Shown here: one piece after another, positions 858 through 24,631 of the stretch
Layout of the letters: each line of letters starts with the position of its first letter
Position numbering within the stretch: the stretch's first letter is position 1
Assembly (NCBI GenBank): GCA_039809905.1
Contig: JBDHVY010000001.1
Span: 420,001 to 452,000 of the forward strand
Direction: 5' to 3'
Source: Candidatus Babelota bacterium
Lineage (GTDB): Bacteria; Babelota; Babeliae; Babelales; Vermiphilaceae
Length of the DNA: 32,000 nt
Notes under the pieces: model-generated
The model's input: the letters and a program-made list of their open reading frames with translations, nothing else
What the model was told of the DNA's origin: nothing
Databases searched by the model: none
Made by a program: the position numbers and the translations under genes

Positions 858-1217
858 TTATAACTCAGTATATTTTGTCCACTTACCCTTACTTTTTTCA
901 ATAGGGTATTTACGTGCTTTTTCAATTTGTTTATGCGCAAGAGCCTTGCTCAAATCAATCTTATTTTGATTACAAAAACACAAAAGCGCAAATGCAATAT
1001 CTGCTACTTCATCTTCAACATCTTGTCTACGTTTTTCTAATTCATCATATGAAGCTGCACTCTCGCACCATAAAAAAAGATCCATGAGTTCTGTGCTTTC
1101 TGAAACTAATGCCATACTCAAATTTTTCGGACTGTGAAATTGTTGCCATTCACGATCTTCAATAAACTTTTTAACATCCTTTTTTAAAGATTCTATTGTT
1201 GTTGTTACATCTGACAT
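858..1217 (-). CDS. MazG-like all-alpha nucleoside triphosphate pyrophosphohydrolase (119 aa)
   Basis: Pattern FIEDREWQQFHSPKNLSMAL..ESTELMDLF.W plus the acidic motif EDEVADIAF is typical of small MazG/dCTPase-type NTP-PPases. AAGGA RBS. Starts 9 nt after the stop of the upstream HEPN gene. Confidence 0.85.
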   Translation of the reverse strand: MSDVTTTIESLKKDVKKFIEDREWQQFHSPKNLSMALVSESTELMDLFLWCESAASYDELEKRRQDVEDEVADIAFALLCFCNQNKIDLSKALAHKQIEKARKYPIEKSKGKWTKYTEL

Positions 1218-1226
1218 GTAAAATCC

Positions 1227-1607
1227 TTATGCCAAAAATCTTATACGTTCTATTAATGCATTAAGCTCTCTAGAAAATGAATCAAATCCGGAAACAATTA
1301 CATCTACATTTTCTTGTTCATATGTATACGATGTTAGATGTCGTTTTTCTATAAAAGCAAACCACTCTTCTGGGTTATCAATCAATCGCGCAAGAGCAGC
1401 TTTTCGAAACACATCTCTAGGCGCGGTTGATTCTACACCTTGAGCAGTTAAAATGTGCTTCATTGTTTTCCATGATAATTCATAACAAACCTTAAAAGCC
1501 TGCACAGCCCCAGCCTTATCTCTATCAGTTATCATATCCTGGCGAAATCGCTCAAAAACTGATTGTGCTTTAAGTAAATTGCTAAAATCTGTCCCTAATT
1601 TTTCCAT
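1227..1607 (-). CDS. HI0074-family HEPN protein (nucleotidyltransferase substrate-binding type), no MNT partner adjacent
   Basis: 126 aa. AFKVCYELSWKTMKHIL..GVE..APRDVFRKA and KRHLTSYTYEQ match the family pattern FE.t.El.WK..K..L...G......pr.v.r.A and RN.tsHtYde. GAGGAA RBS. Confidence 0.85.
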   Translation of the reverse strand: MEKLGTDFSNLLKAQSVFERFRQDMITDRDKAGAVQAFKVCYELSWKTMKHILTAQGVESTAPRDVFRKAALARLIDNPEEWFAFIEKRHLTSYTYEQENVDVIVSGFDSFSRELNALIERIRFLA

Positions 1608-1635
1608 GCCCTATTCCTCGATGTTATGTATATTA

Positions 1636-2265
1636 TTATTCTTGTTGTTTATGATGTAAAAAATCTACGACAAATTGGCTCCAAGATTCCATGCATTCAC
1701 GTTGTGCGATACAATCTGCAAGCGAAACTAATGTACCACTTTTTAATTCTGATTTTATTGCAATATCAGCACTATCACCTTCAAGCAAAAATACAAATCC
1801 AATATGCACCTTGCCAACATCGTTGGAATCATCATTCAAAATGCCCAGAGGTTTTACATTCACTTTCCCTGCATAATCAACTTCTTCATGAAATTCACGC
1901 AATGCCCATGCAAAAAGCGAATCCTCTACCATATCTTCTTGCCGAATATGACCACCAATACCAAGTGTTAATTTATTGCGCAAACGAGCTTCTGAGGCAT
2001 CTGATTTTCGTTGCATCAAAAAATATTTATCATCATGAGTAAAAACAAGATAGGGAATAATTTGTTTATATCGAGGATCAACTTCCATCATTGAACGCGG
2101 TAAAAATTCTTTTTTATCATTAATTATGCTGACATAATGATCAAAATTGACTTCTTTTAATCCGTGCCATGCCTGTACATCATCAAAAAAATATTGCCTA
2201 GACATAACAAGAATAAGTTCATCCTGGATGTGCGCAGTGGGTTGTTGTGTATTCATTTGTGTCAT
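1636..2265 (-). CDS. Nudix-family hydrolase (COG4112/YmaB-like)
   Basis: 209 aa. Nudix-box-like GIGGHIRQE...REFHEEVDY, and an N-terminal segment EVDPRYKQIIPYLVF as in MutT-family predicted phosphoesterases. AAGGAAG RBS. Confidence 0.8.
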   Translation of the reverse strand: MTQMNTQQPTAHIQDELILVMSRQYFFDDVQAWHGLKEVNFDHYVSIINDKKEFLPRSMMEVDPRYKQIIPYLVFTHDDKYFLMQRKSDASEARLRNKLTLGIGGHIRQEDMVEDSLFAWALREFHEEVDYAGKVNVKPLGILNDDSNDVGKVHIGFVFLLEGDSADIAIKSELKSGTLVSLADCIAQRECMESWSQFVVDFLHHKQQE

Positions 2266-2367
2266 AAATTATCTTCCTTTTTCTAATGCAGCCATGGCAT
2301 GGCTTAAAATAATTTTCTTTATTTTTTATGCTTTCAGTATAAATCAGACACCCAGATTAGCAACCAA

Positions 2368-3583: not shown

Positions 3584-3976
3584 ATGATCATTAATGATAC
3601 CAAATTCAATTCCATTTGGACCATTTCAAAATATGTCTACGGCCTTGTTCCTGTGCTCATCGGCCTTGATAAATTTTCCTTTTTCATTGTTGATTGGAAT
3701 ATGTATGTCAGTCCTTTTGCAGCATCCATTGTTCCCATTACAACTCTTGTTCCTCTTGTTGGTATTATCGAAATTGCAGCAGGATTGCTGATTCTGACTA
3801 AATATCCTCGTTTTGGTGCCTATCTTGTTGCTGCGTGGATTGGGATTGTTATTATTAATCTATTCATGATTGGTGGCCTTTACGATATTATTTTGCGTGA
3901 TATTGCCATTGCATTTGGTTACATTGTATTTGCAATGCTGACTGAAGTTAAAGAATCTGCTCAGACATCAATATAG
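3584..3976 (+). CDS. Small integral membrane protein, 4 TM (DoxX-like topology)
   Basis: AAGGAG RBS. Four hydrophobic helices. GLDKF...W and GIIEIAAGLLIL are reminiscent of DoxX-like proteins, but this family call is tentative. Confidence 0.6.
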   Translation: MIINDTKFNSIWTISKYVYGLVPVLIGLDKFSFFIVDWNMYVSPFAASIVPITTLVPLVGIIEIAAGLLILTKYPRFGAYLVAAWIGIVIINLFMIGGLYDIILRDIAIAFGYIVFAMLTEVKESAQTSI

Positions 3977-5222
3977 CCAATTTTTGTTTAATAGCTTCGT
4001 TAAAAAGCGGTTGAGTAATTTTAGGTAAATTTTGAACACGATTTGAAAGGGATATTTCTTTTATATCTTCATGAGTAAGAGCATTATTAATCGCTTTAAA
4101 GCACAATGTTAAATAGTTACTTGTGTAAGGACAATGAACTTCATTACTTTTTATATCTACCTGCAATGCCCGACTACTTAATCTTTTTGAATGTGTTTGC
4201 GGTAAGGGAAAATAAGCTATCATGATAGATGAAAGCTCTGTAATATCCCACAGATATGCTCTATTATTTTTACTTGAACAGGTAGTCATTAAAAAAGGTA
4301 CGTGATCGATTTCATCAAGTAAATGATTCCAGGAAACAAAACAAACCGGTTTTTCATGTGGTAAAATTTTAGTGATATATGTTTGAGAATTAAGAAGAAT
4401 TATATCATTGCTACCGTTAGCAATCGCAAGCCATTTTCCATCAGCAGAATGATCTATATCCGTTACAATTCCATCATAAACATATGTATGATCATATTTT
4501 CCCGTTTTCCAATTCCATAACCGTATTGTTTTATCATCTGATACGGTTACAAGAAGATGTTTTACATTTTTTGCATTATGCTTAACTGTATAGGATAAAG
4601 CAAAACGAACAACATCCGTATGTTCTTTCAATACATGATAATATGTTTTTCCGTTTATCTTATAAAAATCATCACTCACTTTTTTTAAAATATATTTTTT
4701 TATGCTCGGTACTAAATCTTCAAATGAATGTTCTGCTGATAGAACTGTATCGAGAGTTTTTCCGTTAACATTCTCCAGATCCATAGCCTTTTGATACATA
4801 CAGCGATCAATTAAAAACTTAAAAAGAGCATTCCTTTTTGTTAAAGCCGCAAATATTTGAGGCTGATCTAACTGTTTAATTTTATCAGGAATTAAGGGAT
4901 ATAATTTATTGAGAGCTTTTATTGATTGTTTATAAGCAGCAATAGGCTCTTCTTGCTGTAATTTTTCAATGGAATAGAATGAAGAATCTTGTTTTACAAA
5001 TTCATCAATTCGTTGAGAAAGCTCCCGACAATTTTTTATAGACTTGATTGGTCTTAATAGTGTTTCTTGACTAGAACGAAAGCTTTTTAAGAGTTTATAA
5101 GTATCTTCGTCAGTAAATGGAGACTTATCTTCAATCAACGGCACCTCCGGAAAATCCATAGACGATAAAGAAAGAATACTAAAGCACAACAACACCATAA
5201 GCATTCTTATTGTTTTATCCAT
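3948..5222 (-). CDS. Secreted WD40-repeat protein (424 aa)
   Basis: AAGGG RBS. Signal peptide MLMVLLCFSILSLSS. C-terminal half has WD40 signatures (LLVTVSDDKTIRLWNWKTGK; DGKWLAIANGSNDIILLN; NNRAYLWDI). The 3' end overlaps the convergent 3584 gene by 29 nt. Confidence 0.75.
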   Translation of the reverse strand: MDKTIRMLMVLLCFSILSLSSMDFPEVPLIEDKSPFTDEDTYKLLKSFRSSQETLLRPIKSIKNCRELSQRIDEFVKQDSSFYSIEKLQQEEPIAAYKQSIKALNKLYPLIPDKIKQLDQPQIFAALTKRNALFKFLIDRCMYQKAMDLENVNGKTLDTVLSAEHSFEDLVPSIKKYILKKVSDDFYKINGKTYYHVLKEHTDVVRFALSYTVKHNAKNVKHLLVTVSDDKTIRLWNWKTGKYDHTYVYDGIVTDIDHSADGKWLAIANGSNDIILLNSQTYITKILPHEKPVCFVSWNHLLDEIDHVPFLMTTCSSKNNRAYLWDITELSSIMIAYFPLPQTHSKRLSSRALQVDIKSNEVHCPYTSNYLTLCFKAINNALTHEDIKEISLSNRVQNLPKITQPLFNEAIKQKLAILMSEQIL

Positions 5223-11377: not shown

Positions 11378-12988
11378 CTAAAACAGCTCATTCACTAACT
11401 GATCAATCTGCTGCGCAGTAACTTCATCTGCCATACATGCATAAAATTTTTCATCATATTCACGCGTTTGAACAACGACCGGCATTGTTACTGCATGTCC
11501 CAATAATAATGCCTGTTTTTTTGTATCCAATGAAGCTAAAATTGACCGCAATGCTGTTGCGCCATTTACACCAGTTAGCACTGCCTGAATATCTTTTTCA
11601 TCATTTAATTGCGCAACAATCTTGGTACCAATTTGAGAAATTATTTCTTGATCAATCCCTGAAGGTCGCTGATCTACCACAAGCAATGAAACATAATATT
11701 TACGCATTTCTCGTGCAATAACGCCAAAAATCGTTTGGCGTGCAGCTTGTGGATTTAAGAATTTATGCGCTTCTTCGATAGTAATCAATAATTTTTTTGG
11801 TTCATCTTCTTTGCGTTGTGATCCCAAAAACTTTTCAGTTTTAGCAACATATTCTGTATGAATACGACGTGAAATAATATTGGCAATAAGCAGATAAACA
11901 AAGGTAGAAGTATAATTACCAAATTCAACAATAACGCTGATTCCTTTATCAATAAATTCCATCATTTGATCAATGACAGGTACATGTGCACCTTGGTGCA
12001 ATGGTTTAAAAAACGGTAAACGCTCAATGCGCTTTAATTTTCTATATAAGGCAGCAATTGATTCTGGATGTGCTCCAATTGATTGGGCAAATTCTTTTAA
12101 ATTCTCACCCTGATTTAATAGCACATACAACCAATCCTGCTTGTATTGGGCAACAATTAAATAGGCAGCTTCGATCGCCGTTGAATGTAAATTCAATTCA
12201 TCTTGTAGTGAAAGTAAATCTTCTACTTGAATGGAATTATATGCAAGAACAATCTCTACATCAGGCGATCCACCTCGCCTACGCGTAGAATCAGGATCTA
12301 AAGAAAATATAGCAACTCGATGAGGAAATAATGTTTTAAGCCCTTTAACAAATGATTGATGTTCTGATTCTTTACGTGCTTGCAAACCGTATTCACTGTG
12401 CATATCAAAAATTAAATTAATTGCTTTATCATTTTTGATAAGTCCTGCAAGAACAAGACGGGTGATAAATGTTTTTCCTGTTCCTGTTTTACCAAAAATA
12501 CCATTACTTCGCTCGGTTAATCTTTCCAAATCAATACACACAGGAGTATTCATATCAAGAGGACATCCAATACTAAAATATTTTTTACTTGGATGAATTT
12601 CATCACCAAAAATTAATGCTACATCTTTTTTATCTGCATCGTATACATACGTAAAATGAGCGGGAATCGTTTTGACCGGAGATGGCTTATTATCTTTGGT
12701 AAGCATCAGCATTGGTTTAAGAACTGCTGTTGCATAGATATCTTTTTGTTTCAACAATGCAGTAAGCAAAGTTTCCTCCGGAGTAGGAGGAAACAATAAA
12801 ATATCAGGATGAGTAACTTCAAGCGCAAGATCTGTAATGAGAGAAAAAAATGTATGTGTCTTACCCACAATCGAAACAAATTTTCCCGTTTTTATTTCTT
12901 CCAATGCAATATCAGGAGAAATACGGATAACAAGACCTTCGGTAAGTGAACCGGATACTATGTGACCAAGAATGCGCTTTAGCCCCAT
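11378..12988 (-). CDS. HerA-like (DUF87) P-loop ATPase
   Basis: 536 aa. Walker A GKTGTGKT, Walker B LLITIEEAHKF and an N-terminal barrel-like region (GHIVSGSLTEGLVIRI...GKFVSI). The start ATGGGG is preceded by GGGGTAAAAAC. Confidence 0.8.
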   Translation of the reverse strand: MGLKRILGHIVSGSLTEGLVIRISPDIALEEIKTGKFVSIVGKTHTFFSLITDLALEVTHPDILLFPPTPEETLLTALLKQKDIYATAVLKPMLMLTKDNKPSPVKTIPAHFTYVYDADKKDVALIFGDEIHPSKKYFSIGCPLDMNTPVCIDLERLTERSNGIFGKTGTGKTFITRLVLAGLIKNDKAINLIFDMHSEYGLQARKESEHQSFVKGLKTLFPHRVAIFSLDPDSTRRRGGSPDVEIVLAYNSIQVEDLLSLQDELNLHSTAIEAAYLIVAQYKQDWLYVLLNQGENLKEFAQSIGAHPESIAALYRKLKRIERLPFFKPLHQGAHVPVIDQMMEFIDKGISVIVEFGNYTSTFVYLLIANIISRRIHTEYVAKTEKFLGSQRKEDEPKKLLITIEEAHKFLNPQAARQTIFGVIAREMRKYYVSLLVVDQRPSGIDQEIISQIGTKIVAQLNDEKDIQAVLTGVNGATALRSILASLDTKKQALLLGHAVTMPVVVQTREYDEKFYACMADEVTAQQIDQLVNELF

Positions 12989-21378: not shown

Positions 21379-22281
21379 ATGAAACATACCAAAAAAATTT
21401 CATTATTTTTACTCACCAACATATCTCTTTTTTTATATACCACTCCACTACAATTATCATTCACCCTTCCTTTTACCATAACAGGCAAAGCGGATAAAAC
21501 CACCTTTTTCCTGCAAGATGCCGCACATAAGGAATTTGTTTTAAAATATCATCCCCGAGGCCCAAGGCGTGCAATTCATGATACACTTGGCGCACAGATA
21601 GGAAAATCTATCGGTCTCAACATTAATGAAGTAGAAATATTTTCACCTGATGACCAATTCAATCAATTATTTAATGATATAAAACCGATATCACCAGCAC
21701 ATACAGGTATAACCACCTTACATTCACGCGTGCCTGGCAAACAAATTAAAGATATTAAATACATGAATGATGATATTTATATAAAACATGGATTATGTAA
21801 AGAAAAGCATTTGAATAGCATCATCCATTACAAACAATTATGTGATATTGTTGCGTTTGATTTATTTATTGATAACACTGACCGCAATAATCGCAACTTT
21901 TTTTTTGATGAAACAACCGATGAATTTTATGCTATCGATATGGATCATGGATTTAAATCAGCCTATGCATTAGTAATGACCAGCAATGAATATGATTTTG
22001 ATACACTTGCTACGCGCGCTTATGATTTTATAAAGAAATTCAAAAAACGACCTTTATATTCCCAAGAAATTAAAGCACTCAAACGTGTTAAACATACCTT
22101 AGAAATACTTGTTCATCGCAATAGCCCTGAAACCATATTCACGCAATGGATGGAAATTGCAGATAAAGCTGACTATGTTTATACCTCACGAGAGCAGGAA
22201 AAGATTAAAAAATACCTTGAATATCACCTCATTCAGATCAATCGCTTAGTTGCCTTGCTTAATGATATCATGAGTACATAA
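21379..22281 (+). CDS. Secreted atypical kinase-like protein (PI3/PI4-kinase or HipA-like catalytic motifs)
   Basis: Signal peptide ISLFLLTNISLFLYT. FVLKYHP (candidate ATP-binding Lys), LFIDNTDRNNRNFFF (compare GDRHxxN catalytic loop) and FYAIDMDHGF (compare HIDFGH). Confidence 0.45.
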   Translation: MKHTKKISLFLLTNISLFLYTTPLQLSFTLPFTITGKADKTTFFLQDAAHKEFVLKYHPRGPRRAIHDTLGAQIGKSIGLNINEVEIFSPDDQFNQLFNDIKPISPAHTGITTLHSRVPGKQIKDIKYMNDDIYIKHGLCKEKHLNSIIHYKQLCDIVAFDLFIDNTDRNNRNFFFDETTDEFYAIDMDHGFKSAYALVMTSNEYDFDTLATRAYDFIKKFKKRPLYSQEIKALKRVKHTLEILVHRNSPETIFTQWMEIADKADYVYTSREQEKIKKYLEYHLIQINRLVALLNDIMST

Positions 22282-22384: not shown

Positions 22385-24631
22385 ATGATGAAAATAAGTA
22401 AAAAAACCGCTATTAAAGCTATAATCATAGCTATATGCACGGCTTTTTCGGTACAAATCATGCCTATGTCTCGAGCATCGCAAATGTTAACTCCTGAGCA
22501 AAAGCGCGCACTTATCGCCAAACGGGCTGTATTTAATAAGGCAAAAGCAACTGCTGCAGCTTCCGCCGTACAAAATCCTATATGGATACGTACAAATGAT
22601 AATAATGTCATTGCAATAGCTCAATGGAAAATAAATGAAATGACGGAACTTTCATCATTAGTAAAAGATCAAGATGGCAAAAACAGCCAAACTAACCCGA
22701 CTAACGTATCCATGCTAACCAGATCTGATTTAGAATTACTTTCAACTGCTCTAGATAAAATATCATCTGGTCAATTTGATCAATATTATGAAAGTCTAAA
22801 ACCAGAATATGTAAAAAGTCTTACCGATAAAAATGTTGGCCCAGGACAATTGCGTAATCTTATTACTCTGGCAGGCACAATCAAAGCAACTACGCTTTCT
22901 GCATTTTTAGCTTCTTATTTTTTACCTAATGATATGCAAAAATATTTAATGGTTCCACAAATTGTATCTCCTGTGGCTGATTACTTAAAAAGCGAAATCG
23001 TGAAAAAAAATAGACTTCATCAAGCGCCTCTCATTGGCCATGAAGGAAAACTCGTCAACGTGGAATTTAGTAAAGATAGCACCGTTGCAGTAACAAGTGC
23101 AGAAGGAGAACATAATAATATTATTACCTGGAACATACCAGCAGGTCAACAATTGCAAACTTTTACTATTTCAGAAGGCGAGATAGATGGCGTACAAATC
23201 AATAACGACGGAAGTAGAATTGCAGCAATTGTATCAAAGAATTTTGAAATGCAAGAATTATTTAATAAGAATGAACAACCAACAACTGAAACAAAAGAAA
23301 TTCTTATCTTATGGGATGCAAAAACAGGCAGACAAATTAAGATCTTTGATAATTTACCCGATACCACCATCTTTTTCATAGAATTTAGTAGCGATGGAAA
23401 AAGAATAGTGATTCCAGTTGGACATGAAGTTACTGTTACAAATCCTGAACAAGAAGAAAAAGGATATATCATAATTGCTGATAGTGAAACAGGCAATATA
23501 ATTGCAACTCATGAAGTAGCAAATAACTATCCAGATGTCCAACCTAATCCTAATGGCAATACCTTATTAGCAAGATCAGAATCAGACCTTATTCTTTATG
23601 ATATTAACACAGGTCAAAAAATCAAAAAATTGGATGGGCCTACTGAAATAATTTATGATGCGAACTATAGCGGAGATGGAACGAAAATAATTGCACGTGA
23701 TTTTACAGCTCAAACAATTTTTATCTGGAATGGAAATACCGGAGAACAAATAACACAATTTAATAATATTGTTCCAAATGCATTTGCGATCAATCATGAT
23801 GGAACAAAAATGGCTACGGTTTCTCTATCCGAAACTACTGACACTATTTCTATATGGGATGTTGCAACAAAAACCGTAACTCATACTATTGATAGTAAGC
23901 AAACTGAAGTTACCTCTACACAATTTAGTCCTGATAGCCGAATGATTATTTCAACAGGTCTTGGTGATAAAAATATAATTTTATGGGATGCTCTTACCGG
24001 AAAGCAATTACACGCACTCAATCATAGTAACAACCTTCCTGATGTTAACTTTAGTTCCGATGGAAAACGCATTAAATCTCATTCTAGCCCGGCAATAGGT
24101 GAAGAAAAATGCACTACAATGTTATGGAATACTGACACAGGAAAAAAAATACACACATTTATTGCAGAACATGATTTATTAGAAGAGGATTCAAATTTTA
24201 TTAATATAATAAGTCCTGATGATACAAATAATCGCAACTTTATTCTCTGGACATCATTAAGTAAGGACGAACGCAATACTTTAGAAAAAATAGAAAACAA
24301 TCTGAATATCGATCAAGCACATTTATTGTATCAGTTGTATATGGCAAAGATCAGTAACACTCTTATTTCTCTCTCTGATAAGCAACAACTAGCAAGCCTT
24401 CCAGCTGATATTCTTAGCATAGTAAATACATACCTTAAGCCAACTCCATTGCCAAAAGCTACTTTAGCATTAAAACCACAACCGTTTGAACAACCTGCTA
24501 TGGTAACAACGTTATCAAAAACAGCTCCTGTAAAATCACAACCACTTAAGCAACCAGCAAAGCCCATACAAGAACCAGAAATACGAAAATCACAAACATG
24601 GGCTGATTGGGCACGTAGTTGGTGGAAGTAA
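22385..24631 (+). CDS. Large secreted WD40-repeat protein (748 aa)
   Basis: Signal peptide AIKAIIIAICTAFSVQIMPMSRA. At least 7 WD-like repeats (IITWNIPAGQQ, ILILWDAKTGRQ, LILYDINTGQK, IFIWNGNTGEQ, ISIWDVATKT, IILWDALTGKQ, TMLWNTDTGKK). Pro/Gln/Lys-rich tail ending WADWARSWWK. Confidence 0.85.
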   Translation: MMKISKKTAIKAIIIAICTAFSVQIMPMSRASQMLTPEQKRALIAKRAVFNKAKATAAASAVQNPIWIRTNDNNVIAIAQWKINEMTELSSLVKDQDGKNSQTNPTNVSMLTRSDLELLSTALDKISSGQFDQYYESLKPEYVKSLTDKNVGPGQLRNLITLAGTIKATTLSAFLASYFLPNDMQKYLMVPQIVSPVADYLKSEIVKKNRLHQAPLIGHEGKLVNVEFSKDSTVAVTSAEGEHNNIITWNIPAGQQLQTFTISEGEIDGVQINNDGSRIAAIVSKNFEMQELFNKNEQPTTETKEILILWDAKTGRQIKIFDNLPDTTIFFIEFSSDGKRIVIPVGHEVTVTNPEQEEKGYIIIADSETGNIIATHEVANNYPDVQPNPNGNTLLARSESDLILYDINTGQKIKKLDGPTEIIYDANYSGDGTKIIARDFTAQTIFIWNGNTGEQITQFNNIVPNAFAINHDGTKMATVSLSETTDTISIWDVATKTVTHTIDSKQTEVTSTQFSPDSRMIISTGLGDKNIILWDALTGKQLHALNHSNNLPDVNFSSDGKRIKSHSSPAIGEEKCTTMLWNTDTGKKIHTFIAEHDLLEEDSNFINIISPDDTNNRNFILWTSLSKDERNTLEKIENNLNIDQAHLLYQLYMAKISNTLISLSDKQQLASLPADILSIVNTYLKPTPLPKATLALKPQPFEQPAMVTTLSKTAPVKSQPLKQPAKPIQEPEIRKSQTWADWARSWWK

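Follow-up and report, generated by a model that had tools for sequence, protein, structure and literature searches.

The closest described relatives of the locus analysed here are the type VII toxin-antitoxin (TA) systems, in which a HEPN toxin (HepT) is paired with a minimal nucleotidyltransferase (MNT) antitoxin (MntA), and which are represented by Shewanella SO_3166/SO_3165, Aphanizomenon HEPN/MNT and Legionella HEPN-MNT (PDB 8xdj, 8xeh). In the Shewanella toxin, RX4H is regarded as the ribonuclease (RNase) site and the Tyr that follows it is AMPylated by MntA (PMC7641770). The same view of RX4H is taken for Aphanizomenon, in conflict with results obtained in Legionella, where Q44 and E47 form a Mg2+ site needed for both RNase activity and toxicity, E47A abolishes both, and R98A and H103A have little effect, the H103A protein still being toxic (PMC11586414). 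HEPN families with a relocated His have been described, and for inactive HEPN domains such as that of Swt1 a role in RNA binding or as sensors has been proposed (Anantharaman et al. 2013, PMC3710099). Here we analysed a HEPN gene that lies without a linked MNT between a Nudix and a MazG hydrolase gene, in a 32-kb stretch of DNA (contig JBDHVY010000001.1, positions 420,001 to 452,000) referred to below as the window. On balance, this gene probably encodes a domesticated, non-toxic orphan HepT that selection has maintained within a housekeeping operon of Nudix and MazG. The locus bears on the dispute in the HepT field over whether the His of RX4H or the Glu of the metal site is catalytic.

The three open reading frames (ORFs) of the operon are all on the minus strand, at exactly the coordinates and with the 28- and 9-nt gaps given in a preliminary description made from the letters of the window. 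The first gene (1636-2265) encodes a TM1382-type Nudix hydrolase of 209 amino acids (aa) with an intact REFHEE catalytic helix, the second (1227-1607) the orphan HI0074/HepT-type HEPN protein of 126 aa, and the third (858-1217) an all-alpha MazG pyrophosphohydrolase of 119 aa that resembles DCTPP1/RS21-C6. The Nudix-HEPN spacer occupies 28 nt (1608-1635), and the HEPN-MazG spacer is 9 nt (1218-1226, minus strand), with no MNT remnant left at the position that an MNT gene occupies in relatives. AGGA-type ribosome-binding sites lie ahead of all three genes, and the GC content at third codon positions of the HEPN gene (0.22) is close to that of its neighbours (0.23 and 0.22) in a genome of 34% GC. 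When the six-frame translation of the window was searched by hmmsearch with MNT and HEPN profiles, neither an MNT (best E=0.36) nor a second HEPN was found, so that the absence of an MNT near the HEPN gene, also noted in the preliminary description, extends over the whole 32 kb.

The HEPN protein belongs to the family of the type VII toxins, scoring 88.5 bits against PF08780 (NTase_sub_bind; cut-off 31.8, E=4.6e-25) and 70.2 bits against TIGR01987 (HI0074; cut-off 55.8, E=1.6e-19), and it shares their five-helix fold, the AlphaFold model (predicted local distance difference test score, pLDDT, of 84) being an all-alpha HEPN bundle. The top PDB matches of this model were 8xdj, 8yuf, 1wty and 1jog (TM 0.74-0.82), and the Legionella HEPN toxin 8xdj was the closest characterised relative both by sequence (3.6e-12) and by structure (TM 0.82). 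The protein also keeps the conserved Arg and the AMP-acceptor Tyr of the characterised toxins; unlike them, it has Tyr in place of the motif His and Lys in place of the E47-type Glu, and has no MNT.

As read in the preliminary description, the sequence KRHLTSYTYEQ, which corresponds to residues 88-98, carries a Tyr in place of the motif His and a His beside the Arg. Arg89 (codon CGA, 1343-1341) and Tyr96 (1320-1322), at the AMP-acceptor position of characterised HepT toxins, are present, and the catalytic His position of RX4HXY is held by Tyr94 (TAT, 1326-1328). Directly after the motif Arg, His90 (CAT, 1338-1340) replaces the Asn of the family. The second candidate catalytic position is that of Lys39 (AAG, 1491-1493), which aligns with the Mg2+-site residue E47 in a phmmer alignment to 8xdj whose register was checked on R98/H103/Y105; all these codons are read on the minus strand. 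By the codon table, both changes are single transitions toward A/T in this genome, GAA to AAG/AAA in the first case and, by a single C-to-T, the CAT of relatives to TAT in the second. Because the E47-type Glu and the RX4H His are both replaced, the window HEPN is probably disarmed, and, as far as its residues tell, it has most likely lost its toxic RNase activity and with it the need for an antitoxin.

Gene order was compared across 40-odd related loci, probably from Babeliales, in which ORFs were classified by phmmer. Genes for LeuRS, an M48 peptidase and WD40 proteins neighbour the syntenic site. Two genomes of complete size, 1.05 and 1.35 Mb (L041, L042), have Nudix and MazG side by side without a HEPN gene. 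The order Nudix-HEPN-MNT-MazG, present in two to three lineages, was found in L038/L039 and in the P0238 locus, with the arrangement HEPN-(2)-MNT-(16)-MazG in L038, and L035 carries Nudix-HEPN-MNT. The MNT-linked HEPNs of these operons have the canonical RNLTxHTY, and their MNTs contain GSX10DXD; sister loci of the window thus hold the full type VII pair at the same chromosomal site. The trio Nudix-HEPN-MazG without MNT, which the preliminary description had noted in the window, is conserved in 12 distinct lineages (window, L003/4, L006, L007, L010, L013, L015, L017, L021, L034, L036/37 and L043), with HEPN-MazG spacers of 1-18 nt and no MNT-like fragment at E<=1 in any of the trios. One further lineage (L005, L011, L012) shows the order Nudix-HEPN(Tyr)-HEPN(His)-MNT-MazG: at L005 6001-7552, and likewise in L011 and L012, a canonical HEPN(Glu/His)-MNT pair lies 106 nt downstream of the resident Tyr variant and is followed by MazG. 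Since the second pair of L005 is phylogenetically foreign, as described below, the intergenic site has been occupied twice by HEPN-MNT cassettes. What is conserved at the site is thus the pair of hydrolase genes, into which a HEPN gene, alone or together with an MNT, is variably inserted; the window represents the MNT-deleted form.

A single chromosomal site is therefore seen in five states, namely without a TA insert, with a complete HepT-MntA pair, with the antitoxin lost, with the catalytic residues replaced, and re-invaded by a second pair. Such a series is suited to asking how a toxin gene outlives its antitoxin and which role a HEPN takes on after domestication. Free HEPN-MNT pairs without the hydrolases are common in the related genomes (L016, L018, L019, L022, L023, L025-27, L030, L031). 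In contrast to this mobile two-gene module, the window HEPN is embedded in a housekeeping operon and vertically inherited with it. At L035 4357-4994, a second, MNT-like fragment (E=4e-16) comes after the full MNT and takes up the usual place of MazG, and no MazG was detected at that locus. A HEPN scan of a collection of genome contigs other than that of the window returned only two loci, both distant: one HEPN-MNT from a cyanobacterium and one from a gammaproteobacterium. Three HEPN-MNT pairs lie within about 4 kb on a cyanobacterial contig from a metagenome-assembled genome (L001 1630-5650).

A bootstrapped neighbour-joining tree was built of HEPN, and a tree with bootstraps of concatenated Nudix and MazG. 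In the HEPN tree, the free HEPN-MNT pairs and the second HEPN of L005 form a clade with 100% bootstrap, apart from the operon-embedded HEPNs; because the second L005 HEPN groups with the free pairs, the L005 pair is a separate, later arrival. Within the operon-embedded group, the basal positions are held by the Glu/His forms that have an MNT (L038, L035). Next comes a Lys39 clade (68%) that holds the MNT-less His94 forms L017, L021 and L043, and inside it a Lys39/Tyr94 crown (96%) that includes the window. This branching suggests that in this lineage Glu changed first and His later. L015, with Glu/Tyr, represents an independent MNT loss and is the only MNT-less operon copy without Lys39. Lys39 and/or Tyr94 occur in 14/14 MNT-less operon copies and in 0/3 MNT-linked ones (Fisher p=0.0015), figures that reflect only about 2 independent events; the association with MNT loss is a tendency and provides no strict marker. 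Lys39 had been considered as a strict mark of MNT loss and was dropped, as P0042/L044 has Lys39, His and an MNT.

The two proteins that flank the HEPN look like ordinary house-cleaning enzymes. The Nudix protein scored 15.8 bits against Pfam NUDIX (PF00293), below the gathering cut-off of 21.1 (E=0.014), and it matched 3e57, the putative Nudix hydrolase TM1382, in a PDB sequence search (E=1.2e-24). Its AlphaFold model (pLDDT 85.7) had 3e57 as top fold match (E=4e-17, TM 0.76). Beyond it, over 200 PDB chains matched at E<=0.001, the listed ones being proteins of the Nudix fold. REFHEE, at residues 123-128, is invariant across 24 homologues. A total of 2404 homologues were retrieved, the top 120 at 66-94% identity, some of them named Candidatus Babeliales, and close homologues bear the JGI label 'predicted NUDIX family phosphoesterase'. 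The COG4112/YmaB assignment made in the preliminary description is a putative one for the window Nudix; B. subtilis YmaB reportedly has deoxynucleoside triphosphate pyrophosphohydrolase activity. The MazG protein scored 35.9 bits against PF12643 (MazG-like; cut-off 27, E=9.2e-9), its PDB relatives are 4qgp (7e-17) and DCTPP1/RS21-C6 (2e-16), and its ExxE...ExxD metal-binding motifs are present, ESTE and EVAD aligning to these relatives. Pairwise ratios of nonsynonymous to synonymous substitution (dN/dS) were 0.08-0.19 for the Nudix gene and 0.035-0.17 for the MazG gene. The flanking genes thus share families, catalytic motifs and strong conservation with DCTPP1/RS21-C6 MazG and TM1382-type Nudix enzymes; what sets this lineage apart is that the two share one operon and have a TA insert between their genes. 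The window Nudix also matches the phage family phrog_8902 (function unknown) at 4e-29 and the MazG matches phage pyrophosphatase families, so that phages carry relatives of both window hydrolases.

The preliminary description had suggested that the hydrolases might replace the MNT as counter-activity in a new nucleotide-centred module. This proposal is not supported, as the same genes flank canonical HEPN-MNT in L038/L039, P0238 and L035, and Nudix and MazG stand adjacent without any HEPN in L041 and L042. Given the loci of these two kinds, the hydrolases need no TA components and do not stand in for them either. A wider proposal is that the three (or four) genes form one nucleotide-centred stress or defence module, in which the HEPN would be a nucleotide- or RNA-sensing subunit or the hydrolases would set the nucleotide pool that controls HEPN activity or AMPylation. 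The tight 1-18 nt HEPN-MazG spacing kept in all loci would suit such a module, as would the vertical inheritance of the HEPN at this site over saturating divergence under purifying selection, and the presence at the same site of HEPN-MNT in several lineages and of a second, foreign pair in L005. We nevertheless consider it unlikely, since the hydrolase pair does without HEPN in two large genomes (L041, L042), the Nudix family with its 2404 matches far exceeds the tens of operon-embedded HEPNs, and the four-gene form (L038) still needs its own MNT. Moreover, none of the three proteins matched the defence models of PADLOC-DB v2 at E<=0.01, and the literature searched describes no HEPN-Nudix-MazG system and has nothing on this arrangement for Dependentiae HEPN or for COG4112/YmaB. 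The locus does not reveal a new defence system, and the domesticated orphan HepT remains the reading we favour.

The frequency of the changed residues was determined in a close set of 98 full-length HEPN homologues and in a diverse set of 140 cluster representatives that cover the motif, drawn from 1.84 billion searched. In the close set, position 94 is Tyr in 29/98 and His in 65/98, and 27 of the 29 Tyr carriers also have Lys39. In the diverse set, His occupies this position in 121/140 and other residues in 10/140, with Tyr (9/140, about 6%) being the commonest non-His residue. The preliminary description had presented the Tyr as a departure from the family motif and had asked how rare it is; by the alignment of close homologues the change is a fixed clade feature and no isolated accident, and rarity holds only in part, as Tyr is uncommon among diverse representatives and yet recurrent. 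Little or no variation occurs in the clade at Tyr94, at Lys39 and at 24 further positions. All 98 close homologues, even those without a linked MNT, share Arg89 and Tyr96. The Asn90-to-His change is fixed in the crown clade (25/98), which includes P0025/L034 and P0034 that keep or regained His94, and residue 90 is Ser, Tyr or Asn in those sequences of the Tyr94 group that fall outside the crown; the His90 change may be compensatory or coincidental. Solitary HEPN genes without adjacent MNT, Nudix or MazG were observed in L014, L020, L024, L029 and L032, those of L020 and L024 also having Tyr, and orphan HEPNs are therefore not rare in the group.

These residues bear on a second alternative, namely that the HEPN has remained a working RNase toxin with a remodelled active site, in which His90 makes up for the lost His94, and that an unlinked MNT acting in trans, or some other mechanism, keeps it in check. 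The fixation of His90 throughout the crown and the invariance of Arg89 and of the AMP-acceptor Tyr96 even without a linked MNT speak for it, and there are precedents both for HEPN families with a relocated His (PMC3710099) and for toxicity without the motif His, as in the H103A mutant of Legionella (PMC11586414). It is, in our view, very unlikely, as the E47-equivalent residue of the metal site has been lost as well (Lys39), His90 is not required for retention of the gene given the Ser, Tyr and Asn found there outside the crown, and no MNT of the subfamily was seen on the contig of the window genome, in a search that was incomplete. The loss of both candidate residues is consistent with a domesticated, non-toxic HepT.

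Selection on the orphan HEPN was estimated from pairwise dN/dS with bootstrap intervals. Values for HEPN were 0.09-0.37, with upper bounds of the confidence intervals below 0.6, and they equalled those of the neighbouring genes in the pairs L007-L013 and L003-L007. In the closest pair, window-L006, dN/dS of HEPN was 0.37 versus 0.12 and 0.035 for the neighbours, and its identity was 78% versus 92% and 97%. At saturated dS, at least 12 lineages still have an uninterrupted, full-length frame, and the gene has been inherited vertically with its operon neighbours. The HEPN gene is under purifying selection and is not a decaying pseudogene, and the fixed Tyr94, Lys39 and His90 of the crown clade argue for a new constraint instead of a release. 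The loss of the MNT, the origin of both catalytic-candidate changes by single transitions in an AT-rich genome, the faster evolution of HEPN than of its neighbours between the window and L006, and the lack of any HEPN in L041 and L042 would all suit a neutral, decaying TA remnant kept only by lying between two needed genes, but such a remnant is highly improbable in view of the intact frames, the low dN/dS and the near-invariance of Tyr94, Lys39 and 24 other positions, which is unexpected for a released site. The preliminary description had allowed that a cognate MNT beside a second HEPN copy would indicate a decayed remnant; this is partly the case, as a canonical HEPN-MNT pair lies directly downstream of the Tyr variant in L005, L011 and L012, and the conclusion of decay does not hold under purifying selection.

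The window HEPN is thus comparable with two further groups of known elements. Like inactive HEPN domains, for instance that of Swt1 (PMC3710099), its fold is under selection after loss of the Rx4-6H His; unlike these, which belong to other families and are fused to enzymes, it is a free-standing protein of the HI0074 type that descends from a TA toxin, and any RNA binding by it is putative. Like orphan toxins and 'anti-addiction' TA relics, it has its antitoxin deleted and functional residues substituted, in a group of genomes where free HEPN-MNT pairs are common; in contrast to such relics, which usually decay, it is conserved, with dN/dS down to 0.09 and its replacing residues fixed. The suggestion of a domesticated, inactivated HEPN, one of those put forward in the preliminary description, therefore fits best with the values of dN/dS (0.09-0.37) and the replacement of both RNase-implicated residues.

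The proposed history starts from what was observed on gene order, on the substitutions, on selection and on the lack of a linked MNT, and from these we infer the evolutionary direction, the co-transcription, the loss of toxicity and the present function. The starting point would be a conserved two-gene operon for nucleotide house-cleaning (TM1382-type Nudix and DCTPP1-type MazG) in a small-genome, low-GC bacterium, probably of the Babeliales (Dependentiae). In an ancestor, a type VII HepT(HEPN)-MntA(MNT) cassette would have come to lie between Nudix and MazG. In the lineage of the window, the MntA gene would then have been cleanly deleted, and the HepT gene would have stayed, presumably co-transcribed with the hydrolases. 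The Glu-to-Lys change at the metal site and the His-to-Tyr change in RX4H would have abolished the toxic RNase activity, and the protein may have been exapted for a new role, either as a non-catalytic, RNA- or nucleotide-binding dimer or as a dominant-negative partner of incoming HepT toxins.

Several points weigh against this history. Lys39 also occurs with an adjacent MNT in P0042/L044, as does Tyr94 in L018, and His94 has been kept without a linked MNT in three lineages (L017, L021, L043). The deep bootstraps of the Nudix and MazG tree are 18-63, so that it cannot tell an ancestral Nudix-MazG pair from secondary loss of the insert. The studies cited above disagree on the catalytic residues, since H103A is toxic in Legionella and work on Shewanella and Aphanizomenon assigns the RNase activity to RX4H. 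An unlinked MNT may lie elsewhere in the 1.23-Mb genome: a search for homologues of the L038 MNT returned no protein on a contig of 1,228,744 nt but was incomplete and missed the query's own entry. Finally, purifying selection like that on the housekeeping neighbours implies a function, which the proposed history leaves unnamed.

The leading candidates for this function are that of a dominant-negative guard against incoming HepT and that of an accessory RNA- or nucleotide-binding subunit. Because the RNase sites of HEPN span the dimer, a dead subunit could neutralise an incoming HepT without an antitoxin. The dead HEPN might accordingly serve as a resident 'vaccine' against the HepT-MntA addiction modules circulating among these genomes, by heterodimerising with active HepT, or, in a variant of this idea, as a regulatory subunit of the Nudix/MazG pair, a proposal that we regard as tentative and rather unlikely. 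If true, the 'vaccine' would explain the purifying selection without an antitoxin, the fixed replacement residues and the foreign pair beside the Tyr variant in L005.

Upstream of the operon, a candidate sigma-70-like promoter (TTGCTA-16-TATACT, 2336-2363, minus strand) lies about 70 nt from the Nudix start codon; it is a weak candidate from a consensus scan that gave 12 sites versus 7.7+/-2.6 expected and is uninformative in AT-rich DNA. No terminator-like sites were found within or after the three genes by a scan that is itself uninformative in such DNA. A divergent gene of 125 aa (2433-2810) is located upstream of Nudix in the window, at a place where relatives carry genes on the same strand: a DUF5674 gene and a 111-aa gene lie directly upstream of Nudix in L038 (2665-3341), L041 (3324-3997) and L035 (2680-3353). 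The operon may thus be longer in these three loci; both genes are missing from the window.

Elsewhere in the window, a HerA-like ATPase with DUF87 (1.4e-28) and a HAS barrel is encoded at 11378-12988 (minus strand), and a 300-aa protein encoded at 21379-22281 (plus strand) matches the HipA_2 family of HipA-like kinases (PF20613, 1.6e-9) and may be the product of a toxin-type gene. Eukaryote-like WD40 beta-propeller proteins are encoded at 3948-5222 (minus strand) and 22385-24631 (plus strand), and the loci of relatives also carry ankyrin and F-box-like proteins, which fits the intracellular lifestyle of Babeliales/Dependentiae.

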